DNA of 64,000 nt from positions 64,001 through 128,000 of IMG/VR virus record IMGVR_UViG_3300036399_001571; one strand, 5' to 3'. Of this stretch, positions 34,743 through 62,066 are shown piece by piece (position 1 is the stretch's first letter; each line of letters begins with the position of its first letter). The notes beneath the pieces are model-generated. The model did no database searches. It saw only the letters and a list, made by a program, of their open reading frames with translations, and was not told the DNA's origin. Source of the stretch: a virus. Both the position numbers and the translations under genes were made by a program.

Positions 34743-35026
34743 TTCTGTTTCCCTCCTTAAGGGTGTTTGGTTAGTTGTAGTTACCTTACAGCAGGCGATA
34801 TCAGATTTACAAAATCGCTTTACACCGTGAGGCAGTACCTACCCTAGGGCATGCGATATCAGATTTACAAAATCGATTTATCCCCACATTACCTATAGAG
34901 CAATTTTTTGATTTTTTTGCAGGGGTGTAACAGGGTTTCCCCGGGGCTATCAGCTCTTATTGTTAGGCATACCTAACAGGTTCGGCCGGGGCTCTAGGGT
35001 CGAGCGGCCGGCAAATGACCGGTGGG

Positions 35027-35209
35027 TTAGTTACAACCGCAACAGGCAGAGCAGAAAACTACTTCGCCATGTTCACCGCAGTCAGCGCGGCGCGACTCAC
35101 AAATAATGCAATTTTCTGCAGACATGGCAGCCTGCGCACGACGCTCCGCCTTTTTCTCTCCACGGTTCTTGCCTATCTTGTAGACAACATAACCACCGAG
35201 TAGACCCAC
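35027..35209 (-). CDS. Small Cys-rich protein
   Basis: CIIC...C..H..FCSACC; coupled to the upstream gene. Confidence 0.45.
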   Translation of the reverse strand: MGLLGGYVVYKIGKNRGEKKAERRAQAAMSAENCIICESRRADCGEHGEVVFCSACCGCN

Positions 35210-35715
35210 TAGATACCAGCCTGTCTGTCAGCCTTAGCGTCCCTGACTTCCCAAAGACCTTTCTTGACCTTACGGAAGGTTGGACTCTCTTGGACGTATT
35301 TCAGAGTGGTCGGGTAGGAGAAGCCACACTGCTCCATAAGTTGCTCTGTGGTGAACTGCTCAAAATGGTGCTGGTTCGCCCACTTCAGGAACGAGTCCCA
35401 CTTGTCAGCCCGCTTCTCGGTCTTGACCTCATCTACGACAGACTCCTCATCTACCTGAATACCGCAGTACTCACTAGATACCTCTGCGATTACAGCGTCA
35501 GGAAGCGAATAGGAGAGCATGGCACGGATAGGACTGCCCTTTGCTCCGTCACGATTCCACACTTGGAGAACATGTAATGCCCTTGTGTAGTCACTGATAC
35601 CTTGGGCGACTTCCCGTGGCACGGCGAACTTATCCCCGAACTCGTCAATGGCTTCAGCCCAACGAGAGGTGTGGATATCGGTAATGGTTGATTCGGTTAT
35701 TGACTTTTTCAACAT
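35209..35715 (-). CDS. Hypothetical protein with a C-terminal wHTH-like segment
   Basis: Directly downstream of promoter 35754; FTTEQLMEQCGFSYPTT...FRKVKKGLW. Confidence 0.55.
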   Translation of the reverse strand: MLKKSITESTITDIHTSRWAEAIDEFGDKFAVPREVAQGISDYTRALHVLQVWNRDGAKGSPIRAMLSYSLPDAVIAEVSSEYCGIQVDEESVVDEVKTEKRADKWDSFLKWANQHHFEQFTTEQLMEQCGFSYPTTLKYVQESPTFRKVKKGLWEVRDAKADRQAGI

Positions 35716-35902
35716 AGTAGATACTTCCTTTCACCACCCACCTTACAGGAGGCGATATCAGATTTACAAACAGACTCTTCCACCACCGTCAAGATAAGGC
35801 GGCCCCCGGAGGTCATCACATTTTTTGATTTTTTTGAAAATAAAGCTCCAGGCTCTTCGGCCGAACAGTGCTACTACCCACTATCCGGCCCGAGCCCCGG
35901 TC

Positions 35903-36181
35903 TTACCCTTTTGTTTTTTCGAAAGATTTGTTCCACGTGTGCGTGTAGTAGAAACTTGCAGTCGTCTTAAGCTTTCCCTCGATGTGGAATTTAACTCGAA
36001 GGTATTCAATAGCCGCCGCTACCTCTTCATCCGTGAAGTCGTTGTCCGTGTCGTTCTCCCAGTAGCCGTTTAAAAAATCGCTTTTTGCTGTCTCCACCGC
36101 ATCTTCACCGGTGGTGGACAGTGTGTAGTAATTCTCCTCAAGAATCTCTGCAATTTGGGCGAGCACATCCATGTCAATCAT
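35903..36181 (-). CDS. Hypothetical protein
   Basis: ATGA-coupled operon 37237 to 35903. Confidence 0.5.
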   Translation of the reverse strand: MIDMDVLAQIAEILEENYYTLSTTGEDAVETAKSDFLNGYWENDTDNDFTDEEVAAAIEYLRVKFHIEGKLKTTASFYYTHTWNKSFEKTKG

Positions 36182-36588
36182 TTCGCTTCGCCTTTCAACA
36201 TCGTGTAGAGGTCGTCTATGACGCCACTAATACTTTCTTCAACAGTTTCGTTGATGTTGTTTTCAATTTTCTCTTCAATCTTTCCCAAGCCGGCAACGAA
36301 TACATTCCACAGTTCCTCTAGTGATTCCTGCTCTTCATCCGTGAATTGGTCGCCCATGGGTATGAACCTGATTTCTACAATGCCATCAGAAAGTAAATCC
36401 ATAAGTTCTTCAGGGGTAATAGATTCACGGCGTTTAGCGGAATACATCCGTCCATCCTTGGTAAAAATACCAGTGGTCATTCGACGATTTGCGTCTCTGT
36501 AGATAGAGAGGGCTTCAACAATCAGGTTTATTTCATCGAGGGTGAAACGTTTGCTGATTTGTCCAGTTACTGCTTTTTTCTTAGCCAT
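36178..36588 (-). CDS. Hypothetical protein
   Basis: Coupled ORF. Confidence 0.55.
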   Translation of the reverse strand: MAKKKAVTGQISKRFTLDEINLIVEALSIYRDANRRMTTGIFTKDGRMYSAKRRESITPEELMDLLSDGIVEIRFIPMGDQFTDEEQESLEELWNVFVAGLGKIEEKIENNINETVEESISGVIDDLYTMLKGEAK

Positions 36589-36806
36589 TACAAGGTCCTT
36601 CCTGAGAATTCAAACCATTCATCATAGGTCATACCAATAGTTCCAACAAATTCTGCATTCTCATAGAAGTCCATGATAAAGCCCTCATGGGTGATTCCAA
36701 TGTTTATGAACTTGGCGTTGACCTCGTCATAGCCACTAGTAAAGACGGTTACATCCTTGCGTGAATGCTGATTGACATCAAATGTCATCTTCTCATTGTC
36801 GCTCAC
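36588..36806 (-). CDS. Hypothetical protein
   Basis: Coupled ORF. Confidence 0.5.
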   Translation of the reverse strand: MSDNEKMTFDVNQHSRKDVTVFTSGYDEVNAKFINIGITHEGFIMDFYENAEFVGTIGMTYDEWFEFSGRTL

Positions 36807-37207
36807 TTGTCACCTGCCTCGTCTAGGTGTCGCTTGATTGAAGCCATTTCAGCCAAGTACTCATCAAACGACATTGCGAACGGGAACTCAATCATGTTGA
36901 TGTTGTTCAGGAACAGCGAGTCCCTGAGGTCTAGTTGTTGCCAAAGGTCCAGCAGTTTGTATCCAGCACTCAGGTACTGGTCAAACGCAGTCATCCATTC
37001 CTCGGCAATGCCTACAGACACCCAAGAGTCCTCACCTTCCACCAAGGAGAGCGAACTGCCGTTGTCCCAATCAACACCGATACACATAGCGCCAGCATTA
37101 TCGTATGGCTCACGCGTAACGGTCCCTAGGTCACCCTTGCGAATCCGTGTATACGGGTCGCTAGTGCCGACTAGTTTGATTCTTTCTCCGACAAGTGTCT
37201 TTGTCAT
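36803..37207 (-). CDS. DUF4314-like domain protein
   Basis: VGERIKL...DPY...GDLGTV...IGVDWDNGSSLSL...ED; start MTKTL with SD aggag. Confidence 0.6.
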   Translation of the reverse strand: MTKTLVGERIKLVGTSDPYTRIRKGDLGTVTREPYDNAGAMCIGVDWDNGSSLSLVEGEDSWVSVGIAEEWMTAFDQYLSAGYKLLDLWQQLDLRDSLFLNNINMIEFPFAMSFDEYLAEMASIKRHLDEAGDK

Positions 37208-37259
37208 GATTTTCTCCTTAGTAGTAGTTGAGGACATCTTAGGGTATCCGATATCAGAT

Positions 37260-37541
37260 TTACAATTTTTTAGGCATCGGGTTGCTCTGACTCACATTGT
37301 AGAGCCAGTCATCTGATGTTGGTGCTGTTTCTTCCTTTAGCCTGCGTCCACTACTTTGTCCTTCAATGATTGTGATGCCGAGAGAATCTAGGTAGTCTCC
37401 AGCTTTCATGTGAATTTCGGTCATGAGGTTGTGAACCCCATCCTTTTCAACATCGTCGCTTTCAAACAGTTCTTTATCCAAAGCGAATGTAAAATTGACT
37501 TCGTAAAAAGGTGTATCTGCATCTATTTCTTTGCGTGTCAT
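37260..37541 (-). CDS. Hypothetical protein
   Basis: Ends in TTG-TAA, which is the -35 of the next promoter. Confidence 0.5.
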   Translation of the reverse strand: MTRKEIDADTPFYEVNFTFALDKELFESDDVEKDGVHNLMTEIHMKAGDYLDSLGITIIEGQSSGRRLKEETAPTSDDWLYNVSQSNPMPKKL

Positions 37542-37542
37542 T

Positions 37543-37761
37543 TCAGATGCCTTCTAGAACATCTGATGGCTTCACCTTGAGCGCTCCGCAGAGCAAGATG
37601 AGTGACTGAAGGCTAGGTGAGAAGTGTCCGTTCTCAATCCGGTTGATGGTCTTGCGCTCGAGCCCCGCCTTCTTTGCCAACGCATCTTGCGAGAGTTCTC
37701 GCTCAATACGCAAATCACGAAGTCTTGCACTAACCCGTGCTTCTTTCTTTTCGGTATTCAT
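37543..37761 (-). CDS. XRE/Cro-family HTH regulator
   Basis: LRDLRIERELSQDALAKKAGLERKTINRIENG..SPSLQSL. Confidence 0.9.
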   Translation of the reverse strand: MNTEKKEARVSARLRDLRIERELSQDALAKKAGLERKTINRIENGHFSPSLQSLILLCGALKVKPSDVLEGI

Positions 37762-37794
37762 GTTTCTCCTTGTTAGGTGTTTATTTGGTTTATT

Positions 37795-38460
37795 TCAGTT
37801 TGCACTGAAAATCTGTTGTGAGGTCATGGCTGTATCCATGCCTTCTGCAATCTCAAATGTGAGAGCGTCTTTCCATTCCGAATACTTTTCGTCAAAGTTC
37901 TCGTCGTCGTCGTCGTATTCAGGTTGTCCCTGCATTTCGTGTTCACCTTCTGCAACAATCTCTCCTTTGTGAAAGACCATGTAGCCAGCAAAGAAATCTG
38001 CTTCCTCTGTGAAGTGCATTCCGAATACAAGTTCAGGGAACTGTTCGGAGATGTTCCTCATAAGACCAACCGCAGGGCTCCAAGCACTTTCCCAGTACAG
38101 CGTTATTGAGTTGCTGTTCTCGTCAAATGTGTCCTCGTCAAAATCAACACGGCAAGCACCCCATTTAGTGTCCCAGTTAGCATTCGCCCAGTCGTACCAG
38201 TCCTTGTGACCGTACTTAGCGAGATTTGACTCTTGTTGCTTGCGGTGTTCTTCTGCCTTCTCTTCACCAACATATCCTGAAACTGTTTCGTGCAGTTCTG
38301 TTGGAATTGGGAATAGTTGGTTCATGTCCCATTCTGTTCTGTTCCATTCAGGAATTGCTTTCCACTCTTCAGTCTGCTCAATGCGAATAGCCTCAATGAA
38401 CCGCTTCAGTTCTTTGTTGCTTCCACGAACTTCTCCGTATTGGTTGCACCAGTTAGGCAT
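37795..38460 (-). CDS. YubB/Api92-like ferredoxin-like domain protein
   Basis: MPNWCNQ...WYDW..ANWDTKWG...ESAWSP. Confidence 0.8.
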   Translation of the reverse strand: MPNWCNQYGEVRGSNKELKRFIEAIRIEQTEEWKAIPEWNRTEWDMNQLFPIPTELHETVSGYVGEEKAEEHRKQQESNLAKYGHKDWYDWANANWDTKWGACRVDFDEDTFDENSNSITLYWESAWSPAVGLMRNISEQFPELVFGMHFTEEADFFAGYMVFHKGEIVAEGEHEMQGQPEYDDDDENFDEKYSEWKDALTFEIAEGMDTAMTSQQIFSAN

Positions 38461-38523
38461 TTCATTCTCCTTTTGTAGTAGTAGGTGATGTAACTATACA
38501 GGTACAAATATCAGATTTACAAA

Positions 38524-39021
38524 TTAGTACCATGCGTCAGACCCGTTACATTCATTGGCAACCCAGCGCAACCACCAAATGGCGTACTTGACTTCCTTGT
38601 CCAAGTTCTCACCGTCTTTGGTTACGGTTCCCATTTCGGTCATGCGGTTTTCCATGTCGTCTGCCAAAGCGAGGCATGATGATGGTGACTTGTATGTGCC
38701 ATCTTCGTTGTCGCCATAGAACGAATACTCAAAATCAGGAAGTTCCAGTGCTTCTATGAGGAAGTTGCCGTACTTACCCCTATACCAGCAGTCTGTTCCG
38801 AACATGCCAGTAACACTTCCTTCTTGCAAATCAGTCTTTGATACAGAGATGAGGTAAGGGCATTTGCCTTGTGCCTGCGTTTCTCTGCAGTCAATTCGCT
38901 TTTCAGATAATCCTGTTTCTTCGTCAACAATGGCTACGCCGTCTTTGTCAAGAATGTCAACTTTTACAGCAGTGCCAAGACGCTCGCAGGCGTATCGGTG
39001 TGGGATGTTGTCTAAGCCCAT
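38524..39021 (-). CDS. Hypothetical protein
   Basis: Downstream of promoter 39067. Confidence 0.6.
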   Translation of the reverse strand: MGLDNIPHRYACERLGTAVKVDILDKDGVAIVDEETGLSEKRIDCRETQAQGKCPYLISVSKTDLQEGSVTGMFGTDCWYRGKYGNFLIEALELPDFEYSFYGDNEDGTYKSPSSCLALADDMENRMTEMGTVTKDGENLDKEVKYAIWWLRWVANECNGSDAWY

Positions 39022-39236
39022 GTGGGAATCTCCTTAGTAGTAGGTGAGTACCACTGTAGCGACCCTGATATCAGATTTACAACTCTCTTCCGCCACCGTC
39101 ATGATAATAGAGGCGTATATGACCTACGGTTTTCCGGTGCGCAGGTCAGGCATCATGCCGGCATGAAAGCGAACACCTGTTCGCATAGCCCCGGTGACTC
39201 AGTGGCCGCCTTGTACACCGGGGCTTTACGAGATGA

Positions 39237-39548
39237 TTATTCGCTTTGAGCTATAACCAAACTTCCATCGAGAATTTGCCATCCGTCTTCATGGTCATTC
39301 CAAATGATGGAGACTACCTCTTTGATTCCGTCTAGGTAATAGAAGACATCATCATCCTGAACTCCGAAGTCATCCCACTGCAGGTAGACAGGGTCTTTAC
39401 TGAATGAGAGGTAGTAACTCCTTGTGTCAGAGTCATCATCCCATTGAACTAGTGCGTCCATGCCAACCAGGATTCCCTCTTTAGCAATTACATTTTTCAG
39501 GTATTCCTTCAGTAATCGGAGCGTGAGTAGTGCTTTTCTAATCATCAT
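39237..39548 (-). CDS. Hypothetical protein
   Basis: Coupled ORF. Confidence 0.45.
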   Translation of the reverse strand: MMIRKALLTLRLLKEYLKNVIAKEGILVGMDALVQWDDDSDTRSYYLSFSKDPVYLQWDDFGVQDDDVFYYLDGIKEVVSIIWNDHEDGWQILDGSLVIAQSE

Positions 39549-39862
39549 GCGCTCACTACATCTATAAGTTGTACGAATGAATCCAGTGGCTCGCTTGCGT
39601 CAGGGTACGCCCTCATTGCGTCATCAAGGAACAATTGGTAAGCACCCAAGTTGTCATGAAAGTAGCGATTCGCTCCGCCATCTCCATAATTTTCGACTCG
39701 GCAAACAGTAATCCCTTTTCTTTGAATTTCTGCAGTCCATACGATTCCTTTAGACGTTTCCATCTCGTGGATTATCTTGAAGTCGTACTGGCTAGCAATG
39801 TCGTCCACTGCTGGCTCTGTCACGAAGAGTTTTAGTGACGGTGGAAGTGTTGAATAAAGCAT
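39545..39862 (-). CDS. Hypothetical protein
   Basis: SD aggag; VENYGDGGAN motif. Confidence 0.55.
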   Translation of the reverse strand: MLYSTLPPSLKLFVTEPAVDDIASQYDFKIIHEMETSKGIVWTAEIQRKGITVCRVENYGDGGANRYFHDNLGAYQLFLDDAMRAYPDASEPLDSFVQLIDVVSA

Positions 39863-39899
39863 GATTTCTCCTTGTTAGTAGTTGTTTGAATTCTAGTCG

Positions 39900-40418
39900 T
39901 CAGCAGATTTGAAATCCACCGCAGTTCTCTAGGAACTCTGCGAACCGCTTGACATTCTCCACATCAAACGGGTAGGAAGTGAGCCACGATTCTTTAGTGC
40001 CGATTCCATCACAGGCATTACACCAGCCATAAGTGCGTCCAGTAAGAATCTGATTTTCAGGAGAGAGTTCTTTAGTGGGCATTCCCATTTCCACGCCTAC
40101 CTCGTCATTGCGAATGCCAGTGCATTCACAGAGTTGGCACGCTTCACGGGGAAGTGAGGAACGCCACTCATTGTAAGTCTTTGCGTACTTCTCAACCGTG
40201 CCATTTTCAAGGTCTATCTTGAGTGACCAAGCCAATGATTCAGCCAATGCTTCATCTAGCCCGTCACCGTCGTTTGAGTGCCAGTACTCGCAACCGCTAG
40301 CAATGTCGTCATAGTTGTTGCAGATAAAGTCTGCCAGTGGACGCCAGTACCACACATTGTTGCGGAAGTAACTGCCCGTTTCATTCTTTGGATTTACTCC
40401 AATGACATCCATTCCCAT
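39900..40418 (-). CDS. Hypothetical protein with CxxC pairs
   Basis: Downstream of promoter 40468; FRNNVWYWRPL, CQLC, CNAC. Confidence 0.6.
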   Translation of the reverse strand: MGMDVIGVNPKNETGSYFRNNVWYWRPLADFICNNYDDIASGCEYWHSNDGDGLDEALAESLAWSLKIDLENGTVEKYAKTYNEWRSSLPREACQLCECTGIRNDEVGVEMGMPTKELSPENQILTGRTYGWCNACDGIGTKESWLTSYPFDVENVKRFAEFLENCGGFQIC

Positions 40419-40506
40419 TTTCTTGCTCCTTGTTAGTAGTAGTAGGTAATGAAATCTTACAGTATCAAATATCAGATTTACAAAATCGAGCTAGAGCCCC
40501 GGGCTT

Positions 40507-40857
40507 CTAGTCGCTGTTCGCTTCTATGTACTGACGCACCGCTTCCCGTAGGGCAAAACTTCGTTCAATACATTTTGACATTGCTATTCGGTTCAGTTGT
40601 TCCAAGTCATTCTGCGATATCCTAAACACGCAAATTGGGTTTATTTTTCCTTGCTCTAAGTGCTCGTCGTGCGGCGGTAACAGATTGGCTTTTCGTGACG
40701 CCATTATCCGCTTGTTAGACGTAGATATAGAAACATTCATTCTCTGCGCAACATAGCGCTGTACTGGAATGCGCTTGCTTAGTGCTTCTCTATAAAGGTC
40801 TGCAACAACCTCTAGTTCTTCGTGTGTTGTTTTTCTACCTTTATGCGTTCCTATCAT
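40507..40857 (-). CDS. Putative DNA-binding protein (HTH + RHH-like)
   Basis: YVAQRMNVSISTSNKRI; VFRISQNDLEQL...LREAVRQYI. Confidence 0.5.
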   Translation of the reverse strand: MIGTHKGRKTTHEELEVVADLYREALSKRIPVQRYVAQRMNVSISTSNKRIMASRKANLLPPHDEHLEQGKINPICVFRISQNDLEQLNRIAMSKCIERSFALREAVRQYIEANSD

Positions 40858-41321
40858 ACGCTTGCTCCATCAAATGGACATTGAGCAACTTCACCGAATA
40901 CAGCCTCGTACAAGTTACGCCCGTCTTGCCACTCACTCCAGTCACCATCTGACGAGATAGAGACACAAGAGCCGTAGATTTCTTTCGCCCGAATAAGTAT
41001 CGCCGTAACTACAGCGTCATACGGTTTCATAGCAGTCTTGCAAAAATCAAAGATTTCAGGCTCATTTTTTCTCCACTCAACTTGAGTTGGCATTGCTTTC
41101 CAAGTAAAGGTTTCGTGAGACATATCATCTATGCCATTGAGACTGAACTCGCCTTCCGTGAATTGAGGTGAAGTTCCATTCTCTCCACTCCAGTCGCCTA
41201 GTTTTATGCCAATGGTGTATGCGTGTTCGCAAATAGCCTTAGCGTCTAGTGCAAGTTTGCCGTACATATAGGCAGACCCAGCGTTGTTTCGTGGTCGGTA
41301 GTTGTAATGCGTGTAACCCAT
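40854..41321 (-). CDS. Hypothetical protein
   Basis: MGYTHY...FCKT..KPYD..V; downstream of promoter 41366. Confidence 0.6.
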   Translation of the reverse strand: MGYTHYNYRPRNNAGSAYMYGKLALDAKAICEHAYTIGIKLGDWSGENGTSPQFTEGEFSLNGIDDMSHETFTWKAMPTQVEWRKNEPEIFDFCKTAMKPYDAVVTAILIRAKEIYGSCVSISSDGDWSEWQDGRNLYEAVFGEVAQCPFDGASV

Positions 41322-41581
41322 AGTTATTGCCTTTCGTTAGTAGGTGGTAGTACCTTATCAGACCCGATATCAGATTTACAATTGCTCATAAATCATCAGT
41401 TCTTCTTCATCAGAGAATGGATTTGAGTGCCGACCAATTCCAGTTACCCACATTTTTCGACCTTGCTGACCGCTGTCACCAATTGCGTCTTGCACCTGTG
41501 CTATCGCAAGCCCCGCTGCCGCTCCATCATCAACGCCTGTTACATCAAGCGTGACCATTACTGTCACTCGGTATGTATTCA

Positions 41582-41851
41582 TTAGTAAGTACTCCAATCG
41601 TAGTTGTCGTTTTTGTGTGCGATTTCCTCTGAACAAACTCCGATTACCTTTAGAGTTTCGCCGTCAATGATACGGCTACATTTCTCGCAAAGATAAACCT
41701 GCCCGTCCCAATCTCCATAGATAGTTGGCGAGACAATCTCTCCAGTCCTTAGGCAAGAGTAAAAGCCCTCGTAGTTTGGTTGGTTGCCACATAGGCACTG
41801 GAACCAATCAGTAGTGCCACCTATGAACTCCTCAAATAGTCGGTTGCTCAT
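41582..41851 (-). CDS. Cys-rich hypothetical protein
   Basis: CLC, CEKC; ATGA coupling. Confidence 0.5.
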   Translation of the reverse strand: MSNRLFEEFIGGTTDWFQCLCGNQPNYEGFYSCLRTGEIVSPTIYGDWDGQVYLCEKCSRIIDGETLKVIGVCSEEIAHKNDNYDWSTY

Positions 41852-42096
41852 TTGTCCACTCTCCCGTCCATAATCATTGCGTAGCGGATTAGTTCCTCAA
41901 CCAATTCCACACACTCCCAATCGTTCGCCTCTTGCCCGTCAATATCTTTCACGGCGAGAATACCGTCAAGGACAAACCCTGCATAGCCGTCCTGCATTTC
42001 GCTGGTTGGTTCCGCATTTGGGTCACTGGCGAGATTATAGAAAGGTTGTAGGTATCTGTCGTGCCACTCTTGCGCTGTTATCTTGTCTGTTTCCAT
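41848..42096 (-). CDS. Hypothetical protein, probably leaderless
   Basis: ATG (METDK) lies 7 nt after the -10 TATGAT of promoter 42118. Confidence 0.5.
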   Translation of the reverse strand: METDKITAQEWHDRYLQPFYNLASDPNAEPTSEMQDGYAGFVLDGILAVKDIDGQEANDWECVELVEELIRYAMIMDGRVDK

Positions 42097-42291
42097 AAGT
42101 ACCATCATAGGGAACCCGATATCAGATTTACAAACCACCTCTTCCGCCACCGTCAAGATAATAAGGGTGGGTAGGTAGTCGTTTTTTTGCAGAGCGATTT
42201 ATTTATTTTTTGCGATTTTTTTTATTTTTCTGGATAGCCCCGCAGCACATTCTGGGCCGTACTGAGGCCGGGGCTCCTGGTGGAAAATAGC

Positions 42292-43078: not shown

Positions 43079-43201
43079 GGTATTTCCTTTCGTAGTAGTT
43101 GAGATAGACACTACACGAGCCGATATCAGATTTACAAAATTGTTAGGAGCCCCGCTGGGTAGGTAGTCAGGCATCGAGGCGGGGCTTTTCACGCGCATAA
43201 G

Positions 43202-43237
43202 GAAGCCCTGCCCACCAGTTACGGCAGGCAGGGCTTC
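43202..43237 (-). terminator. GC-rich hairpin, probable intrinsic terminator
   Basis: GAAGCCCTGCC...GGCAGGGCTTC downstream of the 43269-43706 gene. Confidence 0.55.
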
Positions 43238-43706: not shown

Positions 43707-44034
43707 CGGTAGTTCCTTTCGGTAGTAGTTGATTAGATAAGCACTACTCACCTTAGCCAGCCCGATATCAGATTTACAAAACACGGGTAGCCGATATGAG
43801 AGCCCCGCTGGGCTAATCTCTTTGGGTGAACGAACTAGAGCAAGCAAGAAGCCGGGGCTTATCAAAAAGAATTGCCGAGTTCGATATCGAGTTGTACAAC
43901 CTTTGGATACAGATAAGAGCCGTAGAGGAAAGTAACGCCGAGTTCACTGCCGACAATTTGCGCAAAAGTTTCAGGGTAATAACAAAAGAGGGCTAGAGAT
44001 TTCTCTCTAACCCTCTTTCGGTAGGTGGATAGGA

Positions 44035-44433: not shown

Positions 44434-44631
44434 ATTTTGTTCACCCCCTTCGGTGTCTGTAGTAGGTAGTACCACTATATACCACCCGATATCAGATTTA
44501 CAAAATCGCTTGACGAAGTACAGAGCCCCGTCTTTGCCTTTGTTTGGTTGGTTTGCGGGGCTTTTGGGCGCACGAAAAAAAAGAGGGGCAGGTTTCCCCA
44601 CCCCTCTCTCCTTTTCGGTAGCCAGTTGTGA

Positions 44632-45054: not shown

Positions 45055-45212
45055 TATGCCCTGCCTTTCGTAGTAGTTGATTGGGGCAGTAACGACATTA
45101 CAACACCCGATATCAGATTTACAAAGTGCTTTCCGCCACCGTCATCTAAACACCGATACTTGACAAGCCCTCTCACACCTGCTAGCGCACCAACTTTTTT
45201 CGGCTGGTTGGG

Positions 45213-45721: not shown

Positions 45722-45790
45722 TTTTTCCCTCTTTCGTAGTAGTTGATTAGAGATTACAGGAATAGATATCAGATTTACAAAACAATTTGA

Positions 45791-45955: not shown

Positions 45956-46137
45956 AAGCACCCCTTTCGTTGAGTAGTAGTACCTTACAGGAACCGATAT
46001 CAGATTTACAAAAATACATAGCCCCGCTAGCTTTGCGACAGGTTGTACAGCGGGGCTTTCATAGCGGCAAATAGATTGCGCTGCGCACCCATTACTAGAA
46101 GTGGGTTCTGTTGCCAAGCCCCACTCGGCTCCGTTTG

Positions 46138-46380: not shown

Positions 46381-46820
46381 CCCCTTTCAAAGAAGTGTGG
46401 TTCGAGCGGTTCTCGAACGCAGTAGCACCTTAGTAAACCCGATATCAGATTTACAAAACAGCAAGGGCGCAAATAAGCCCCGGCACAACTCCTACCGCAT
46501 GCTCCCTGAATACATTCTGTCCTGAAGGTCTGCGAAGTGATAATCGCACAATGAAACGGTAATAACGCCACTCTCATACTGGCGCACAGTGCCACCGCAC
46601 ATATCTGCGCTATCGGCATTGGTGTCGTATTCTCGGCATTGTTGGTGTGTTTGGTTATTCATAGTGATATGACCTTATCAAACTAGATATCAGATTTCCA
46701 AATTGAACAATAAGCCCCGGCATTAGGAGAAAGCAATACCTCTAATGAGGCGGGGCTCCTGGCCAAATAAGTGACGCAGGTTTCCCCACGCCACCTAATC
46801 GGTTGAACTTGCTTCGCTGA

Positions 46821-47123: not shown

Positions 47124-47412
47124 TATTTGCCCCCTTCAGGACTAGTAGTAGTGAAGTTGGTGGGAGCCTGTCGGGGGACATTTCCATCCCCCGATTAGCG
47201 TTATAGGACACTCTTCAGTCCCACCAACAGTAAACACTTTACGGTATGCGATATCAAATTTACAATTCACGACTGGCCACCCCTGCGCCTTCAGGAGCGT
47301 GGTTTGAGCCCCGCATACCAACTGTCTTGGGTGTTGGAGTGGCGGGGCTATAAAGCCAAAAAAGTCGAGCAACCTACTGGCTGCCCGACTTCTCGGAGGG
47401 TTTTACTGGCGC

Positions 47413-47670: not shown

Positions 47671-47690
47671 AATGTTCCACGTGGAACATT
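47671..47690. promoter_or_regulatory. parS-like palindrome AATGTTCCACGTGGAACATT
   Basis: Fits the bacterial parS consensus TGTTNCACGTGNAACA. Confidence 0.65.
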
Positions 47691-47760
47691 TCCTTACAAG
47701 ACCAACTCTAGTACACCTGATATCAGATTTACAACTTCACTTTTTAGCCCCGTCTTGGGG

Positions 47761-48276: not shown

Positions 48277-48296
48277 AATGTTCCACGTGGAACATT
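48277..48296. promoter_or_regulatory. parS-like palindrome AATGTTCCACGTGGAACATT
   Basis: Second perfect copy. Confidence 0.65.
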
Positions 48297-49052: not shown

Positions 49053-49384
49053 AATTTCCCCTTTCCGAGAAACTTACGGGGATACTTTCCCCGTTGAGAT
49101 AACAGTACAGGACTAGATATCAGATTTACAAAATTACTTATTGCGCTTTATTACTGCGTAGATATAGGTAAAGATAACGCCACTAAGAAACCCAATAATT
49201 AGCCCTTGTGTGTACATAACTGCTTGCACGATTTTTTCTTTCCGTTGTAGGTGATACTAAATTACAGGCTTGTAGTGATTATGTCAAGGATTTCGATATA
49301 GCCCCGCATATCGGGCTGAGCCCGTCTAATAGCCGGGGCTCCGGGAAAAATTTCAGCCGGGTGAACAGGCTGAAACTGGTGGGC

Positions 49385-49639: not shown

Positions 49640-49854
49640 TCCCAATCCAACCCGTCTGTGAAGGCCTCGTTCTCTGCGTACCACGCAAGGTCGTCCTCTT
49701 GTACGAGGTGCCCGTCCAGTGTGTACTCCCCGTCATCCCACGGGTTGAATTCTGCTTTCATTTTGTGCCCCTTTCAGTTGGCCTTGCTTCCGTGCTCCAA
49801 ACATTACAACACGCGATATCAGATTTACAAAACGGGCGAACAGGCCAGCCCGGG

Positions 49855-50287: not shown

Positions 50288-50454
50288 TGTGTCCCCTTTC
50301 GTGGAACTCGTTTACAAAATAAACTTTACAGTACGCGATATCAGATTTACAAAAATTGGAATTTTTTACATAGCCCCGCTGCCGGATTTTTTATTACTAT
50401 GCCGGGGCTAGCTAAGAAAAAAGAGCAGGCGCTTTCGCACCCACTCTCTCTCCG

Positions 50455-50646: not shown

Positions 50647-50718
50647 TTCGTGCCCCTTTCGTAAGGCTTGTTGTTGTTACTGATTACATTACAGCAAGCG
50701 ATATCAGATTTACAAAAG

Positions 50719-50857: not shown

Positions 50858-50863
50858 CAGGAT

Positions 50864-51151: not shown

Positions 51152-51552
51152 TGCTATCCCCTTTCAGTTGGATAAATAAATCGTACAACAAGCGATATCA
51201 GATTTACAAAATACCCTCGAGCCCCGCAGTCGCGGTTACAGACGCGCTCTCTGCTGTCATCAAGTGAAGTCGTATGTCAAGAAGCAAGTCCTGCATTTCG
51301 CTTGAGGCTACGAGTTCACGGCTAGAGATATTGACTAGCGCCTTATCAAGAAGTGTGATTATTTCTTTTTCGTTCATTGTGGGCAGTCCTCGTATGGGTT
51401 GGGGTTTCCTTCATTGTCCTCGCAAGAACAGAAGCCGAATAATTCTACTTGAGTTTCGTGAGTGAGTTCAGTCAAGTCCTCGTATGACGGGGAGCCCCGT
51501 AGTTCCTCTATCACTAAACTCCAAAAATCCACAAAAAGTTTCTCTTGTGAGT

Positions 51553-52414: not shown

Positions 52415-52507
52415 TACTTATCCCCTTTCTAAGGGCTTGTTGTTGTTAGTAATAACTTAGGGCAACGGATATCAGATTTACAAATCCACTTATAGCCCCG
52501 GTGGATG

Positions 52508-52840: not shown

Positions 52841-53104
52841 TGCTCTCCCTTTCAGTAGGTAACTAAATCATATCCGAGCCGATATCAGAATTACAGGATA
52901 CCCGTGCGGGGCTATTTCGAGCCTTTATGGATTTGTAAATCTGATATTGGGGACTATATGCTTTACTTATCCACGAGAAAAGGGGAAAGAAATGAAAGTA
53001 TCATCACACACAAAAGCCAAGTGCCAAGAGTGCGAGCGAGTATTTGACTTGCTTGACGAGGAACAGGCAAATGAGTTTTTTCACGGTCACGATTGCGAGG
53101 GACA

Positions 53105-53643: not shown

Positions 53644-53660
53644 TTTACTATCGGAGAAAA

Positions 53661-56667: not shown

Positions 56668-56754
56668 GCCCCGCACTCGCTTCCGTTCTGTAAATCTGAT
56701 ATCGGGCTTACTAGGCTTACGTTGCCGTAAGGCAAACGAGCCCAATGAAAGGGG

Positions 56755-56940
56755 GTGAGCAAAATGGAACAGTGGCAAGAGGAGGGTTTCGCTTCAGAGG
56801 AGGAATTCTTTGAGTTACAGCGAAGCCTTTGCGAGGAGGAACAGCGGGCGGAATTCATTATGAGTTACGTCGCTGGTGGTGGCTTGTCAAGCGAGGCGCA
56901 AATCGCTTGGTTTCACCACAACCACTCGTGGGGCGAGTAA
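56755..56940 (+). CDS. Small acidic protein
   Basis: After plus-strand promoter 56689. Confidence 0.45.
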   Translation: MSKMEQWQEEGFASEEEFFELQRSLCEEEQRAEFIMSYVAGGGLSSEAQIAWFHHNHSWGE

Positions 56941-57001
56941 CCCACAGAGGCAGGGGCTGGGGCTGGCAACCCTTGTCCCTCGCCTGCGCGTGTGGCGGGG
57001 C

Positions 57002-57424
57002 TTACTCGGTTTCTTTGGTTGGAACTCTGCCCATAAGTTCGTCAGCAATTAGTTTTGCGTACTTTCTGCGCAGTTTCCATACTTTTTGGTTCATTTCAGC
57101 CATTGCGTCAGTGTTTCGTGCTTTCTTTATGCTGTCGCTGTCAAACACGCCGTACTTTCTGAACAAGATGTCGTCAATATCGTTGTTTTCTATCATTATG
57201 TCGGTAATCCAATGGCCCCGCTTGTCAATGCTAAGCAACAGTTCGCAAAGACCCTCAAATCCAAACTCGTTATAGACACGATTAGTCACTAAGTCACAAA
57301 AATGCGCACGATACATAGTCTCGGCTTCGGCAGTGTGCGTCATAAACTCACTCAGCCATACGGCGAGTTCTTCTTTTGACGGAATATCACCGTCTTCACT
57401 GTCAAACTCAAAGTCGTCTTCCAT
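57002..57424 (-). CDS. Hypothetical protein
   Basis: SD aggcagg. Confidence 0.5.
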   Translation of the reverse strand: MEDDFEFDSEDGDIPSKEELAVWLSEFMTHTAEAETMYRAHFCDLVTNRVYNEFGFEGLCELLLSIDKRGHWITDIMIENNDIDDILFRKYGVFDSDSIKKARNTDAMAEMNQKVWKLRRKYAKLIADELMGRVPTKETE

Positions 57425-57480
57425 TAGCCTGCCTTCCGTTGCGCCGGGGCTCTAGTAATCAATGATACTTGTGGCAACTG

Positions 57481-58506
57481 TCAAGCCAAAGACAGAATAA
57501 CTTCTTGCGCTAACACTTTCTTTTGTGTCACCCACGAGTTGTTGTTCATTGAGGCAAGCGCCCGTTCATCTGCTTTTGCGTCACGATAATGGTCAAGGTA
57601 TTCAGCAATAGCGTTGTAAGCACTCCACCCGTTATACCCGTAGCCACCTGCGTTGCGTTCGTTGTCATACACGCCACGAACTAATGCCACTACCCCGTCA
57701 CGGTTTTTCTTTTGTCTCTCCGTACCGTTCATTTCGTTCGGGAATACCTTGTCAAGTATCGTTGCGAGTTGCGCACTTCGTGGTGGAACGTTGATAGCAA
57801 GCAAGCGATTAGCCGTAAGTTGGAATGACTTCGCCCACTCCGTTGATATTTCTAGGACTTTTTGCGCTTCCTCAATAGCATTATCAGCGTTACGAGTGTG
57901 TCGTGCCGTGAATACCCGACGAGCCGACGACTGCCCTGCGATTACCGTGTTTTTACACACCGCACGAATTGAGGTATTGGCAAAGGTGATAGCCGTCTTA
58001 CCGTCGTGTCCGTTGCGAACTAGCAAGTAACGGTCTATCTTGTCGTTGATACCCGTAGGGTCTATGACGAGTTGCCCCAAGTCAAGCGAACTAAAGAACT
58101 CTCTACCTTCGTCAAGTACGCCACAAGTATCTACTACTGCGTCGCCCTTAGAAGCCCCGACTATTGCGAGGGCATACTCCAAGCACTCACGGTTTTGCTG
58201 TACGACATAGCGAGTGCCAACCGTAGCAAGTCCGTCAAAAGTGCCGTCGGGGTTCACTCTCACGGTTGCCCGACTGTCCTCAATAACGACTGGCGTATTA
58301 TCAGGATTTCTGATTAGGTTGCCCTCTGCGTCTACGACTGCGACTTTAGTAGTGACGACATCAAAGTCTGCTTGCGCCGCCTGAAGCATTGCCTCTGCTG
58401 TTTGTAGCCCCTTCATAGGCACTCCAAGCCTATGCCACGGGACTTCACGGTCTGCGTAAGCCATTTTCGCTACGCCCTTAGTGTCTACTTCTAGCATATG
58501 CGCCAT
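57481..58506 (-). CDS. DUF932/DUF945 phage/plasmid-like protein
   Basis: MAH....PWHRLG...RYVVQQN...DTCGVLDEGR...NGHDG...IRAVCKNT...RHT...WSAYNAIAEYLDH. Confidence 0.85.
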   Translation of the reverse strand: MAHMLEVDTKGVAKMAYADREVPWHRLGVPMKGLQTAEAMLQAAQADFDVVTTKVAVVDAEGNLIRNPDNTPVVIEDSRATVRVNPDGTFDGLATVGTRYVVQQNRECLEYALAIVGASKGDAVVDTCGVLDEGREFFSSLDLGQLVIDPTGINDKIDRYLLVRNGHDGKTAITFANTSIRAVCKNTVIAGQSSARRVFTARHTRNADNAIEEAQKVLEISTEWAKSFQLTANRLLAINVPPRSAQLATILDKVFPNEMNGTERQKKNRDGVVALVRGVYDNERNAGGYGYNGWSAYNAIAEYLDHYRDAKADERALASMNNNSWVTQKKVLAQEVILSLA

Positions 58507-58655
58507 AACTTCGTGCCTCTCGCTGTTACTTCTAGTTAGATTTATCTAAAGGCAAGCATACACTCGCCCCCTGCCTCACAGTGTATGCCGGGGCTATCTC
58601 GACATAACAAAAAGGGGGGCAGGCTGTGACACCTACCCCCTTCGCTTTCGTTTTG

Positions 58656-58880
58656 TTAGTTGTATTCGTTGGTTAGCCAGTCATCACTTGACTTAGTGAC
58701 TGGCGTAGCGAACTGACCAAATAACTGGCGAGCATATGGTGCGACAATTTCAGCGCCTCGCTTGACGGTCTGAAACTGCGTCACCTTTCTACCTGCCTTG
58801 TATCCAACGGCACTACCTAAGCCGAACGATACGACTGCTGTCATTGTTAGTAGTACGAGTACTGCGATTATTTCTATCAC
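58656..58880 (-). CDS. Small membrane protein
   Basis: N-terminal TM; TTGACA-N17-TATACT promoter upstream. Confidence 0.5.
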   Translation of the reverse strand: MIEIIAVLVLLTMTAVVSFGLGSAVGYKAGRKVTQFQTVKRGAEIVAPYARQLFGQFATPVTKSSDDWLTNEYN

Positions 58881-59051
58881 TTGCTTCCCCTTTGTTAGTA
58901 GTAACTTACCTACCTAAGTATAGGGATAGTCATAGTACTTGTCAAGTCACCCGTACGACACCCGTAGGCACTTGCGAACTTCACAGAAATACGACTTGTG
59001 CCGTGTTTGTGTGGTTGTATAGGTGGCGTGGTGGCTATAAGCCCCGGCTTT

Positions 59052-59330
59052 TCACTGCCTCTTGTCGTCTACGAACTCTGCGTATGCTTTCAGTGCTTCA
59101 TCAGGTGCGCCGTCTACTAGATATTGGTGCATAACGCCTGCGAGGTCACGCCACTTGCCGTCACTTAGTACCTTCTCGGTAATCGTGTAGCCTTCGTGTT
59201 CGGTTGCCCAACTTATTGAGTGGGGCTGTGCCTTGTGTAGATAAGCAACGGCTTCGTAGTAAGTGCCGAAACTCTCAAGCACTGCGCCGTCTCTCGCTAC
59301 TTCGTAACTAATCTGCGCTTCTGTGTTCAC
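59052..59330 (-). CDS. Hypothetical protein
   Basis: GTGA coupling. Confidence 0.5.
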   Translation of the reverse strand: MNTEAQISYEVARDGAVLESFGTYYEAVAYLHKAQPHSISWATEHEGYTITEKVLSDGKWRDLAGVMHQYLVDGAPDEALKAYAEFVDDKRQ

Positions 59331-59599
59331 TTGTCAAACCTCACTTCTTGAGACACTCGGATTACTTGTCCGTACTTCGCCACTAGGTCATCAGTCGCTT
59401 TCAGTGTGTTGCCGTGACACCACTTGACTGCTAAGCCACTTAGGGTATCGCCTTCCTGAACGATTACTCGGTCAATATCGCAACGATAATTTTCGTCGCC
59501 TCGCATTGAGATAATCATTGCGATAATCGTCACGAGGAATACGAGTGGGAGTGTAATCAGGTCACGCTTGCTTGGTCGGTTTGTGTAGTGGTTGTTCAT
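59327..59599 (-). CDS. Membrane-anchored LysM-like protein
   Basis: TM then VIVQEGDTLSGLAVKWCHGN. Confidence 0.6.
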   Translation of the reverse strand: MNNHYTNRPSKRDLITLPLVFLVTIIAMIISMRGDENYRCDIDRVIVQEGDTLSGLAVKWCHGNTLKATDDLVAKYGQVIRVSQEVRFDK

Positions 59600-59808
59600 T
59601 GTCTGCCCCTTTCAGTAGGTACTAATTACACTAGGGTAGTTTGTGACAAAGGTCAAGGATTTCCGAGCCTTATGGGCATTGGGTTATACCCGTAGGGCTA
59701 CCCGTAGGCACTGCGCCAACCTCATAGGGATTAGTAGGTGGCAGGGTGAGTGTGTTGCCACTACCTATGCCGGGGCTTCGAGCTTGCTGTTCGGTAATGG
59801 CAGGTGGA

Positions 59809-60591
59809 TTACTTAGTGACGGTGCGCTTCTTTGGTGACTTCTTAGTGACTTGCTTCTTTGGGGCGGTGCGCTTGCTCACTGTCACTGATTTGTTTGGCG
59901 TGGGTAGCACTGTCACGGTAATCGCTCTAGCACTCTCAACCACTAGCACTGTCGTTGTTGTCGTTGTCGTAGGTGCTTCGGTAATCACTGGCTCACTCTC
60001 AACCACTGTCACTGGCTCACTGTCTGCTACTGCTTCGGCTGTCTCGGATACAGGGACTGTCGTAGTCGTGGGTGCGATAGTCGTTGTCGTAGTCGTAGGG
60101 GCGAGGGTAGTCGTAGTCGTAGTCGTGGTCGTAGGTGCTTCGCTCACGGCTTCATTACAACTAACTGAACAGTCGCCATTGGTGACTACTGGATTACTAC
60201 TAGCACCAACCAACTGATAGACGGCACTACGAGCGAGGGCGGTATCTATTCCGTCACGCCATAGGGCGAGCATAAAGTTAGGGCGATAGCCGTTGCCACC
60301 TGAACCGTGACCAATACCAACTCCGACATATTCGCACACTGCGAACCATTGGTGCGCTTTCGCTATCGCCTTACCTAGTGCGCTATGACCACCATTGGAA
60401 TAGGTAACTAATCTCTCAAATGCTTCAGTGCCTATCTCGGTGTCAATAATCGTTATGACTGTCGGTTGCTGTGACGAGGGTGCTTCTCTCGGCTCACTAC
60501 ACTCACTTGCTCTCGCTTCGGTGATAGTGACAAGGGGTAGCGATAGCGATAGGGCTAGGGCTAATGCGATAAAGGTTCGTGCTTGCTTCAT
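59809..60591 (-). CDS. Secreted protein with poly-Thr linker and basic tail
   Basis: Signal peptide MKQARTFIALALAL; TTTTT runs; K-rich C-terminus. Confidence 0.55.
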   Translation of the reverse strand: MKQARTFIALALALSLSLPLVTITEARASECSEPREAPSSQQPTVITIIDTEIGTEAFERLVTYSNGGHSALGKAIAKAHQWFAVCEYVGVGIGHGSGGNGYRPNFMLALWRDGIDTALARSAVYQLVGASSNPVVTNGDCSVSCNEAVSEAPTTTTTTTTTLAPTTTTTTIAPTTTTVPVSETAEAVADSEPVTVVESEPVITEAPTTTTTTTVLVVESARAITVTVLPTPNKSVTVSKRTAPKKQVTKKSPKKRTVTK

Positions 60592-60649
60592 AGTAACTCT
60601 CTCTCGGTATGGGCTACCCGTAAGGCTACCCGTAGGCATTGGAATTTTT

Positions 60650-61006
60650 TCACTTTTTTTCGCTTATCCACTCACCACCACTGGCGAACACTGTCTCTCC
60701 CTCATTGGTGAAACTCCAAGCGTAATCGCAACAAGGCTTTTGCTCATAGGGGCTAGGGTGTGCGCCTTTCTCTAGCGACTTCGCTAGTAGTGGGAATGTC
60801 TCTAGTAACTTGACGATACAAGCGTGGCAGATATTCCACGACTTAGGTTCACTATCAGACATTAGAAACTCAAGGTTGTCGGTGAAACCACCATAGAAAC
60901 CAAATGCTTCATAGGGTAAGCACCAACCACTGTCTAGTGTTGTTGCTGTCGGGTGACTTACGAGCTTGACTTCATCACAAGCGTCACACTTCACTGCGTT
61001 GCTCAT
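60650..61006 (-). CDS. Cys-rich hypothetical protein
   Basis: CDAC, CHAC. Confidence 0.5.
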   Translation of the reverse strand: MSNAVKCDACDEVKLVSHPTATTLDSGWCLPYEAFGFYGGFTDNLEFLMSDSEPKSWNICHACIVKLLETFPLLAKSLEKGAHPSPYEQKPCCDYAWSFTNEGETVFASGGEWISEKK

Positions 61007-61296
61007 AGTGCGTACTCTCCACGCTTACGGCGATAGTGCGATACAAAGTCATCACTGTCGTAGTCACAAGGCGTCCACACTATGTCGGCTTCGCTAAAGG
61101 TATCGTCAAGGTGTAAGCGAACTACTACATAGTCAAATGCGTCATAGGCGTTGTATGCGATAAACCTCATACAGCCTACGAGGGTAGAACGGTGTTCGTA
61201 GTGACTAGGTAAGTCATAGCGACACATACTCCAAGCGTCACCATAAGAGGGACACTCAACCACTGCGTACCTGCGTCTATCTTTCTCAATAGTCAT
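61003..61296 (-). CDS. Hypothetical protein
   Basis: After promoter 61317; ATG lies close to the -10. Confidence 0.5.
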   Translation of the reverse strand: MTIEKDRRRYAVVECPSYGDAWSMCRYDLPSHYEHRSTLVGCMRFIAYNAYDAFDYVVVRLHLDDTFSEADIVWTPCDYDSDDFVSHYRRKRGEYAL

Positions 61297-61337
61297 AGTG
61301 TAAGCGTAGGGTAGGTGATATCAGAATTACTAAATGG

Positions 61338-61422
61338 GGTAAGCAAGTAGGTAAGAGTAAGCAACGAGGTAAGCGAGTAGGTAGGTAAGCGAGTAAGTAA
61401 GTAGGTAGGTAAGTAGGTAGGT
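61338..61422. repeat. Low-complexity GTAG/GTAA tetramer tract
   Basis: gtaagcaagtaggtaagagtaagc...gtaagtaagtaggtaggtaagtaggtaggt. Confidence 0.75.
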
Positions 61423-61538
61423 GTTACCCGTATGCTACCCGTGTGCCTTGCGTTAGTCATACTCTCTCAACTTCAGTGCGAAATAGATAAGGGCGATACT
61501 TGCTAGGCAGAATAACTCAAGCACTGTCTCACCACTCA

Positions 61539-61739
61539 TTAGTCATTGCCTTGCGTATCGTTGCTATCCACTGCGTAGTCACTGCTGTCAAGCGTGAACT
61601 TAGGCATAACGAATAGCGTGTTGCCTATGCTGTATGCGTTACGGCTTGCGTTGTAAATTGCGTCAGGGAATAAGCGAACTAAGTCAATTGCTTTCAGTGG
61701 CGTATCGCTTAGGTGAACTATGTTGCGTATTCGTGCCAT
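61539..61739 (-). CDS. Hypothetical protein
   Basis: Start MARIR. Confidence 0.4.
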   Translation of the reverse strand: MARIRNIVHLSDTPLKAIDLVRLFPDAIYNASRNAYSIGNTLFVMPKFTLDSSDYAVDSNDTQGND

Positions 61740-61752
61740 TGTCGTTGTCGCT

Positions 61753-61977
61753 TTACTTCGTACTAGCGACTGCGTGTGCGTAATAAATATCGTCACACCA
61801 CTCTGCCAACTTCACTAAGTCGGCGACTAACGAACCTTGCGAGTTGAGCAACCCACGCAACCCATCAGGCAATGTTTGTGAATTGCTGTCACCACTGCGT
61901 GTTGTGTTGTGTATCGCCGTGATTAGGTCGCTAGCAATTTTTGCTATGTCACCAAAGTCGTTTGCGTTGTATACCAT
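61753..61977 (-). CDS. Hypothetical protein
   Basis: Start MVYNA after promoter 62020. Confidence 0.5.
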   Translation of the reverse strand: MVYNANDFGDIAKIASDLITAIHNTTRSGDSNSQTLPDGLRGLLNSQGSLVADLVKLAEWCDDIYYAHAVASTK

Positions 61978-62066
61978 AATGCCCCCTTGTGTAGTAGTTA
62001 CGGTAAGCATAGCGTATGCGATATCAGATTTACAAAACGCCTTCCAGAGTGGTAGGCGGGGCTCTT

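Follow-up and report, generated by a model that had tools for sequence, protein, structure and literature searches.

The DNA analyzed here (the window, 64,000 nucleotides (nt)) comprises bases 64001-128000 of a 172,519-bp IMG/VR virus record, IMGVR_UViG_3300036399_001571, which is rated 100% complete. Its subject is an array of small genes headed by copies of one repeated, promoter-like unit. Positions are given in window coordinates unless genome coordinates are stated, and the genome to which the window belongs is designated G000.

The phage genome has a G+C content of 45% and encodes a myovirus-type gene set, including terminase, portal, HK97-fold capsid, sheath-like and baseplate J proteins. 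The major capsid protein is nearest to those of Gordonia phages (~48% identical), and the three WhiB genes of the genome point to an actinobacterial host, as had been guessed in a preliminary description of this DNA. Neither a tyrosine nor a serine integrase was found in the phage genome, so that, judged by its gene content, the phage is probably lytic. When 26 kb of the window were compared by megablast with 50,697 deposited phage genomes, neither a match nor a close relative emerged. No tRNA genes were found within the window.

Repeated units of the gene array

The core of the repeat is a 16-nt block, TTGTAAATCTGATATC. When up to two mismatches were allowed, 31 copies were found, 22 of them exact, with 28 on the minus strand and three on the plus strand; shuffled sequence yielded a mean of 0.06 copies and a maximum of one. 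All 31 copies lie within genome positions 95455-126035 (window 31455-62035, 30.6 kb), and none was found elsewhere in the record. The 10-mer ATCTGATATC occurs 24 times, always within the array stretch.

In a position matrix of the 31 copies, positions 1-16 are nearly invariant (17 deviations in 496 cells), with deviations at positions 1, 2, 4, 7, 9 and 16. Farther downstream, T is present at +25 and at +30 in all copies and A at +26 in 30 of 31. These TAnnnT-type bases stand exactly 18 nt past TTGTAA in every copy, and the only poor -10 is the TGCACT of the plus-strand copy at 31455. The 8 nt before the -10 are weakly biased, with preferences for G17, S18, T20 (25 of 31), C22 and S24.

The preliminary description had claimed at least 28 minus-strand and two plus-strand copies, each with a -10 box 18 nt past TTGTAA. 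Both the count and the phase are borne out, and the scan of the whole genome places every copy inside the window. Its account of the spacer holds in part: the first 10 nt are indeed nearly invariant, but the last eight, described as free, carry the weak preferences listed above. Strong selection is evident on the conserved part upstream of the -10; the unit that it preserves comprises all 16 nt of the block, the -35-like hexamer as well as the spacer bases. The description's idea of the spacer as a global switch is hypothetical.

The copies are co-oriented with their downstream genes. One to four genes are headed by 27 of the 31 copies, as had been described, and a single gene by 17; the operons behind the copies at 34797 (~12 genes) and 61317 (~9 genes) depart from that description. 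The median distance from the -10 to the start codon is 35 nt, and the leaders contain CTACTAC in 12 cases and a GAAAGG-type ribosome site in 15 cases out of 31. Genes of the array have a median size of 92 amino acids (aa) compared to 177 aa elsewhere, in agreement with the small-gene accessory array proposed earlier.

Two paired arrangements were also observed. A tandem promoter pair at 34783-34870, with members 58 nt apart, precedes the long AAA-ATPase operon, and a divergent back-to-back pair occupies 52867-52962, with 36 nt between the blocks and one CGGGGCT inside the gap.

Related phages G001-G004 carry 30-50 units each, of the same architecture and confined to the equivalent region. In G000 most units use leaders, and three of 30 are leaderless. 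In the relatives, an open reading frame (ORF) of at least 30 codons starts 6-7 nt past TAnnnT in 36 of 49 units of G003, 22 of 35 of G004 and 15 of 33 of G002. A start codon at the expected transcription start is characteristic of leaderless mRNAs, a frequent form of transcript in Actinobacteria; the leaderless geometry in the relatives therefore marks TAnnnT as the -10. On this evidence, the repeats are very probably promoters with a TAnnnT -10. The repeated unit, in the form of 31 phased TTGnnn-N18-TAnnnT units, fits an early promoter of the type read by a host primary sigma factor.

Block classes among related phages

When the SNF2-type helicase encoded inside the array was used as a query, 55 related IMG/VR loci were retrieved, with 58-99% identity. 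The larger relatives compared over the full length of their records were G001 (160 kb), G002 (90 kb), G003 (148 kb) and G004 (118 kb); the record of a further relative, G005, is 74% complete. G000 and G001 are collinear, and their shared DNA is 85-90% identical at the nucleotide level. An exact 16-mer scan of IMG/VR returned 68 contigs with a single copy each, most of which look like chance occurrences; one of them, L061, is a fragment of a near-identical relative.

After alignment of the relatives on the -10, at least 10 block classes were distinguished, and the -10 stays TAnnnT throughout. The block reads TTGGAAATTTGGTATC in G001, TnGnAAATCTGAAGCAC in G009 (L101), TTnGTATCTGnCCTGnG in G002, TTGTCGGnnnnGGGTGGG in G003 and GGTTGTnnTTACCnCTTACTACC in G004. 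Every lineage has an invariant block of similar length in the same place. The blocks are asymmetric, their orientation is always that of transcription, and TTG is absent in two classes (L132; L116/L122).

Two readings of the block itself were set aside. A dimeric operator is not favored, as the partial dyad around GATATC in G000 is not reproduced in other classes. The G003 block (TTGTCGG...) resembles the mycobacterial RecA-NDp/PafBC motif, but this identification was rejected because the block sits ~7 nt farther from the -10.

Concerted divergence of promoters is typical of phage-encoded polymerases, and the repeats could in principle be promoters for a sigma factor or RNA polymerase of the phage itself that is too divergent for detection and is perhaps packaged in the virion. 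The phage does encode giant proteins without a detectable family (2632 and 1335 aa), but when considered as a hidden polymerase these gave no sequence match. Six-frame searches for Sigma70_r2 and sigma70-ECF revealed no sigma region 2, only region-4-like pieces, and no polymerase signature was found. Every lineage, moreover, retains the generic actinobacterial TAnnnT at normal spacing to TTG. This explanation appears very improbable.

Concerted change was evaluated in 23 G000/G001 promoter pairs with orthologous downstream genes. The two genomes disagree at block position 4 in 100%, at position 9 in 83% and at position 12 in 96% of the pairs, always in the same way, whereas the other block positions are 99% identical and the T, A and T of the -10 are 100% identical. 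Identity is 59% in the 8-nt proximal spacer and 54-57% in the upstream flank (54% over the 40 nt upstream). Each promoter's own -10 and proximal spacer are kept between the two genomes. The 99% identity of the block against drifted flanks indicates that it is under much stronger constraint than its surroundings. As read from these alignments, the block is rewritten in parallel at more than 20 loci.

A uniform block might also arise with no reader at all, by short-patch gene conversion among the 30 copies, perhaps favored for cassette shuffling, so that only TTG and TAnnnT would matter. At the three positions that switched between G000 and G001, L091 carries intermediates and mixtures, and the deviant copies within G000 fall on the same soft positions. 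The phage encodes a Rad52-type recombinase, homology breakpoints are enriched at the elements (see below), and the promoter-early stem-loop (PeSL) cassettes of T4-type phages have been proposed to work by homology alone (PMC2839356). Conversion spreads variants, however, and leaves unexplained why 12 positions remain 99% identical while DNA 1-8 nt away falls to 59%, and why an invariant block of similar length recurs in the same place in every lineage. We regard this explanation as unlikely.

Candidate readers and mode of control

The reading favored here treats the 31 repeats as one promoter class through which a lytic actinophage would express its region of early accessory genes. TAnnnT would be read by host RNA polymerase carrying a primary sigma factor of SigA type, as suggested by the sequence and by the leaderless geometry in the relatives. 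The 16-nt block, at approximately -36 to -21 (the -35-like hexamer and the upstream 10 nt of the spacer), would be a second, lineage-private recognition element. An asymmetric phage-encoded DNA-binding factor would read this block and act positively, taking the usual place of sigma region 4 on the DNA and adapting the host holoenzyme to the private promoters. The candidate for this factor would be either a tandem sigma-4 pair within a capsid polyprotein, which could be delivered with the DNA, or a 213-aa protein.

That some phage-encoded factor reads the block is reasonably likely. A block rewritten in each lineage suggests a reading factor of its own in each lineage, and concerted change under strong selection fits a dedicated reader encoded by the phage and not by the host; a host factor would hardly account for blocks that differ between near-identical phages. 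A positively acting adaptor is favored because the block is asymmetric and strictly phased, because it covers the zone used by T4 MotA and PafBC, because two classes have no -35 TTG, and because the phage, by its domain matches, is unusually rich in sigma-4-type modules. The statement as a whole, including positive control by a sigma adaptor, is put forward tentatively, as a possibility that falls somewhat short of probable.

The tandem helix-turn-helix (HTH) segment sits in a giant ORF that crosses the record ends (genome 166570-172519 and 2-5086; L083, L077) and measures 3567 aa in G001. The ORF begins with a prohead serine protease (Peptidase_S78, E = 1e-10), followed by many segments split by [LF]SSG[KR], the tandem Sigma70_r4-type HTH, ArdcN with MPTase-PolyVal, and WYL. 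The tandem segment, itself bracketed by the recurring [LF]SSG[KR] motif, scored 38.8 bits against Pfam Sigma70_r4 (cut-off 24.1). Its profile matches RpoS region 4 in the PDB (E = 1e-4), and its fold matches are mostly sigma factors. ArdcN and MPTase-PolyVal constitute an ArdC-like antirestriction module. The WYL domain is marginal (21.0 bits against a cut-off of 21.8 by hmmscan, 26.6 in the six-frame search) and does not stand beside the HTHs.

With this domain order, the giant ORF looks like a capsid-targeted polyprotein carrying early-acting cargo, and the polyprotein context suggests that the tandem sigma-4 segment resides inside the capsid and enters the cell together with the DNA. Evolution of the segment as a whole is fast: the G000 and G001 versions are 72% identical. 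Each of the block variants seen (G000, G001, G009 and G002) has a second recognition helix of its own, while the first is nearly constant, a pattern that would mirror the constant 5' and variable 3' halves of the class-1 blocks.

As a separate observation on the record ends, the final 100 nt recur at 1193-1292, and a copy of the polyprotein HTH is present at both ends. The record thus seems to carry an imperfect ~1.3-kb terminal overlap, due to terminal redundancy or to an assembly artefact; its label is nevertheless 'linear, no end repeats'.

The second candidate, the 213-aa protein, begins with a sigma-4/LuxR-type HTH; 13 of the 15 records examined encode it, and it was not found in the 74% complete G005. 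Its recognition helix is its most variable part and is specific to the block class; one and the same helix recurs in G000, G001, L088 and L091, between which the blocks differ at soft positions only. By fold comparison the sigma-4/LuxR/DeoR-type HTH is clear (Z 6-8 over ~51 residues), and the remainder lies between a small terminase and a regulator. The tandem sigma-4 segment and this protein are, from their sequences, the best candidates for reading the block.

In a more specific, virion-delivered version, the tandem sigma-4 segment would be packaged in the capsid and released by the protease as a 'half sigma', redirecting host RNA polymerase to ~30 immediate-early promoters. The host sigma factor would read the -10, the phage sigma-4 module would read the 16-nt block, and its specificity would co-evolve with the promoters. 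This version is doubtful.

Several observations weigh against the favored reading. TTG is kept at -35 in most lineages, and SigA region 4 may read it unaided. L091 holds both the G000 and the G001 block variants, together with intermediates, in one genome; this mixture implies that a single reader tolerates three positions, so that the G000/G001 switch need not mean a changed reader. The switch may instead lie within the tolerance of one reader and have been spread by short-patch conversion. The tandem sigma-4 module is absent from G003 (a complete genome), G004 and G005, despite equally standardized promoters. The 213-aa protein, whose gene lies in the replication module, may, according to weak fold matches, be a small terminase. 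Finally, all covariation between blocks and helices is confounded with phylogeny.

The main rival holds that these are early promoters read by SigA alone and that the block is the operator of a phage repressor, which would shut off or throttle the array later, with repressor and operator drifting together. Retention of TTG at -35 in most classes at a normal 17-18 nt spacing suits this explanation, as does the position of the 213-aa HTH gene in the replication module, which fits a regulator made later. A precedent exists in the asymmetric, co-oriented, multi-copy stoperators of Cluster A mycobacteriophages, which are specific to subclusters along with their repressor (Mavrich and Hatfull 2019, PMC6550527; structure of the monomeric repressor, PMC9283540). 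The likeness extends to motif size (13-16 bp), to copy number (some 25-35), to one orientation relative to transcription, and to motif sets that differ between related actinophages together with the binding protein.

Stoperators, however, are distributed genome-wide, mostly outside promoters, and block elongation in lysogens, whereas all copies described here are phased with a -10 and confined to 30 kb in a phage without integrase. As integrases of both types are missing, a repressor would have no lysogenic immunity to uphold. The only Cro/C1-type HTH protein, encoded in the array, is unchanged between classes and absent from G003-G005, classes without TTG would be left with no -35 at all, and repression needs neither a strictly asymmetric nor a strictly phased block. 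An operator role is considered rather unlikely, and the positive adaptor remains the favored, if tentative, reading.

Other DNA-binding proteins were considered as lineage-specific readers and rejected. In addition to the 72-aa Cro/C1-type HTH protein, whose helix is unchanged across classes, these were the MarR-like winged HTH protein (152 aa), a 168-aa winged-helix-like protein, the WhiB encoded beside the helicase, and a 123-aa protein with a helicase-associated (HA) domain and a sigma-4.2-like HTH; in each of these four the recognition helix is constant across block classes. Three fast-evolving conserved early proteins (142, 145 and 140 aa) matched no family, and no motif for DNA binding was evident in them.

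A second repeat, T-GACGGTGGYGGAA-R (the GACGG element), is the same in the five genomes compared, with 43 copies in total and 7-10 per genome. It is always oriented with early transcription and, unlike the block, is not lineage-specific. No conserved -10 or -35 was found around it. It is a possible upstream activator site, 5' leader or processing signal. Proteins with an invariant helix (the HA plus sigma-4.2-like and the MarR-like proteins) are candidate binders; the 123-aa HA protein would, by its invariant helix, be a candidate reader of this pan-lineage element and not of the private block.

Stem-loops, cassette exchange and relation to known systems

The heptamer AGCCCCG, counted together with its complement, has 56 occurrences against ~13 expected, and these are confined to genome positions 90-130 kb. 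Paired heptamers are separated by 24-27 nt and usually stand 10-20 nt ahead of a promoter. Stem-loops are predicted for 12 of the pairs, at -13 to -27 kcal/mol; their 7-9-bp base is conserved, their interior varies, and all lack a U tract. Almost every relative has this heptamer among its top repeats; unlike the block, it is therefore common across lineages. A stem-loop precedes about a third to half of the G000 promoters; a heptamer lies within 90 nt upstream of only 14 of the 31, which also counts against the favored reading. The coordinates of these and the other features are collected in Table 1.

Table 1. Repeated units and associated features in the window (block, 16-nt block; GACGG element, T-GACGGTGGYGGAA-R).
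Feature	Position	Strand	Remarks
Block, poor -10	31455..31484	+	16-mer match, 1 mismatch; -10 TGCACT; outlier at left edge of array
Block and -10	34783..34812	-	proximal of tandem pair; heads ~12-gene operon (AAA ATPase and others)
Block and -10	34841..34870	-	distal of tandem pair, 58 nt upstream
Block and -10	35740..35769	-	pan-lineage GACGG element ahead
Block and -10	37236..37265	-	G001 homology breakpoint at upstream edge
Block and -10	38493..38522	-	operon with 72-aa Cro/C1-type HTH gene
Block and -10	39053..39082	-	GACGG element ahead
Block and -10	40454..40483	-	
Block and -10	41352..41381	-	
Block and -10	42104..42133	-	ATG 7 nt past -10 (probably leaderless); GACGG element ahead
Block and -10	43108..43137	-	
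Block and -10	43750..43779	-	
Block and -10	44474..44503	-	
Block and -10	45095..45124	-	GACGG element ahead
Block and -10	45751..45780	-	
Block and -10	45982..46011	-	
Block and -10	46427..46456	-	
Block and -10	46672..46701	-	position 4 = G
Block and -10	47236..47265	-	position 9 = T
Block and -10	47705..47734	-	parS-like palindrome in leader
Block and -10	49102..49131	-	
Block and -10	49801..49830	-	
Block and -10	50323..50352	-	homology breakpoint at upstream edge
Block and -10	50686..50715	-	
Block and -10	51180..51209	-	
Block and -10	52454..52483	-	
Block and -10	52867..52896	-	2 mismatches; leftward half of divergent pair
Block and -10	52933..52962	+	rightward half of divergent pair; heads operon with WhiB gene and SNF2-type helicase
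Block and -10	56688..56717	+	1 mismatch; directly past helicase gene
Block and -10	61303..61332	-	2 mismatches; heads ~9-gene operon including DUF932
Block and -10	62006..62035	-	rightmost copy
Stem-loop	39187..39225	-	conserved base AGCCCCG...CGGGGCT; -27.4 kcal/mol, z -4.1
Stem-loop	42236..42275	-	conserved base AGCCCCG...CGGGGCT
Stem-loop	43148..43186	-	11 nt upstream of promoter 43122
Stem-loop	44524..44562	-	upstream of promoter 44488
Stem-loop	45230..45261	-	
Stem-loop	46020..46057	-	upstream of promoter 45996
Stem-loop	46713..46757	-	upstream of promoter 46686; z -3.5
Stem-loop	47307..47349	-	upstream of promoter 47250; z -4.6
Stem-loop	47746..47791	-	upstream of promoter 47719; z -3.4
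Stem-loop	49300..49340	-	
Stem-loop	50372..50409	-	upstream of promoter 50337
Stem-loop	50736..50776	-	upstream of promoter 50700
GACGG elements, standing alone	28464-28476, 29101-29113, 30346-30358, 31586-31598	-	left of array; 16-45 nt before start codons
GACGG elements beside promoters	35778-35790, 39088-39100, 42142-42154, 45131-45143	-	5-8 nt upstream of block promoters
Gene of 123-aa protein	30946..31317	+	HA domain and C-terminal sigma-4.2-like HTH; helix invariant across lineages

Gene content between the motifs is not fully conserved among relatives. Eighteen of the 68 array genes have no homologue in G001 (85-90% identical), and 16-17 of the 68 (about a quarter) are common to G003 or G004. 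Ends of G000/G001 high-scoring segment pairs fall inside stem-loop and promoter elements in 13 of 38 cases, compared to a region coverage of 9.7% (P = 3.6e-5), and several ends of homology blocks lie within 2-5 nt of the upstream edge of the 16-nt block. When only intergenic DNA is considered, the excess is modest (10 of 19 ends, against 30% expected; P = 0.036).

The earlier proposal of shuffling at the repeats is thus supported by the breakpoints, with the reservation of this modest intergenic excess, and its comparison with PeSLs proved apt, given the combined stem-loop and promoter elements and the breakpoints at them. From these homology patterns, the combined unit appears to mark points of cassette gain, loss and replacement between relatives, in a PeSL-like manner.

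Some further features were noted. A 16-bp parS-like palindrome, TGTTCCACGTGGAACA, has two perfect copies at 47673-47688 and 48279-48294 (0.02 expected), the first of which falls in the 5' leader of the promoter at 47719. A GTTGCA-type hexamer (AGTTGCA/TTTTGCA), spotted by eye, recurs upstream of structural and other non-array genes at genome positions 15.9-20 kb, 71.6, 82.8, 135.1 and 152.4 kb, and may belong to a class of late promoters. Outside the window, upstream regions at genome positions 132.5-132.9 kb and 145.6 kb contain tRNA-like sequences, and one island at 34-56 kb holds 13 2OG-Fe(II) oxygenase genes together with Asp/Arg hydroxylase, TauD, DUF6065 and FN3 proteins.

Sigma-adaptor reading is represented by the T4 middle promoters, with a MotA box and AsiA. 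Stand-alone use of a sigma-4-like module is represented by T4 gp33, which binds the beta flap and works with gp55. The module described here resembles gp33 as a phage-encoded, stand-alone module of sigma-region-4 type, but differs in being a putative tandem pair inside a capsid polyprotein, with no sigma-2 partner encoded.

In mycobacteria, the hybrid promoters of PafBC ('sigma adaptation') combine a canonical -10 with an element at -23 to -28 (-26) (PMC8635444). Like the MotA/AsiA and PafBC systems, the present promoters couple a primary-sigma -10 to a specific element farther upstream, between -36 and -21, and their arrangement of nine block bases, then 8 free nt, then TAnnnT reproduces the geometry of the PafBC element. 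They differ in that TTG is kept at -35 in most lineages and that the element is longer (16 nt). No homologue of MotA, AsiA or PafBC was found here, and the activator is hypothetical.

With the PeSL cassettes (Arbiol et al. 2010, PMC2839356; Comeau et al. 2014, PMC4122927), the array shares a recurring combination of a G/C-based stem-loop with a standard early promoter. In both, these elements are concentrated where small orphan genes make up a hyperplastic region, and the insertions, deletions and replacements that distinguish close relatives end at them. The array differs in phage group and host phylum, shows no sequence similarity, and has a stem-loop at only a fraction of its promoters. PeSL promoters match the host sigma-70 consensus, whereas in the present array each lineage has a -35/spacer block of its own, which changes in concert.

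A search of the literature on this phage group revealed nothing similar. Standardized early promoters and the promoter/stem-loop cassette concept were already known from T4-like phages; what is new is the private, concertedly evolving block, rewritten at dozens of orthologous sites, together with the sigma-4 leads. PeSL-like modular gene exchange is accordingly not limited to T4-like phages. The block classes amount to at least 10 orthogonal promoter dialects of natural origin, all with one common -10. Should they have a cognate reader, they would offer a test bed for promoter specificity co-evolving with its reader and a source of orthogonal expression parts for Actinobacteria, and they may represent a new route by which a phage seizes host RNA polymerase at time zero.

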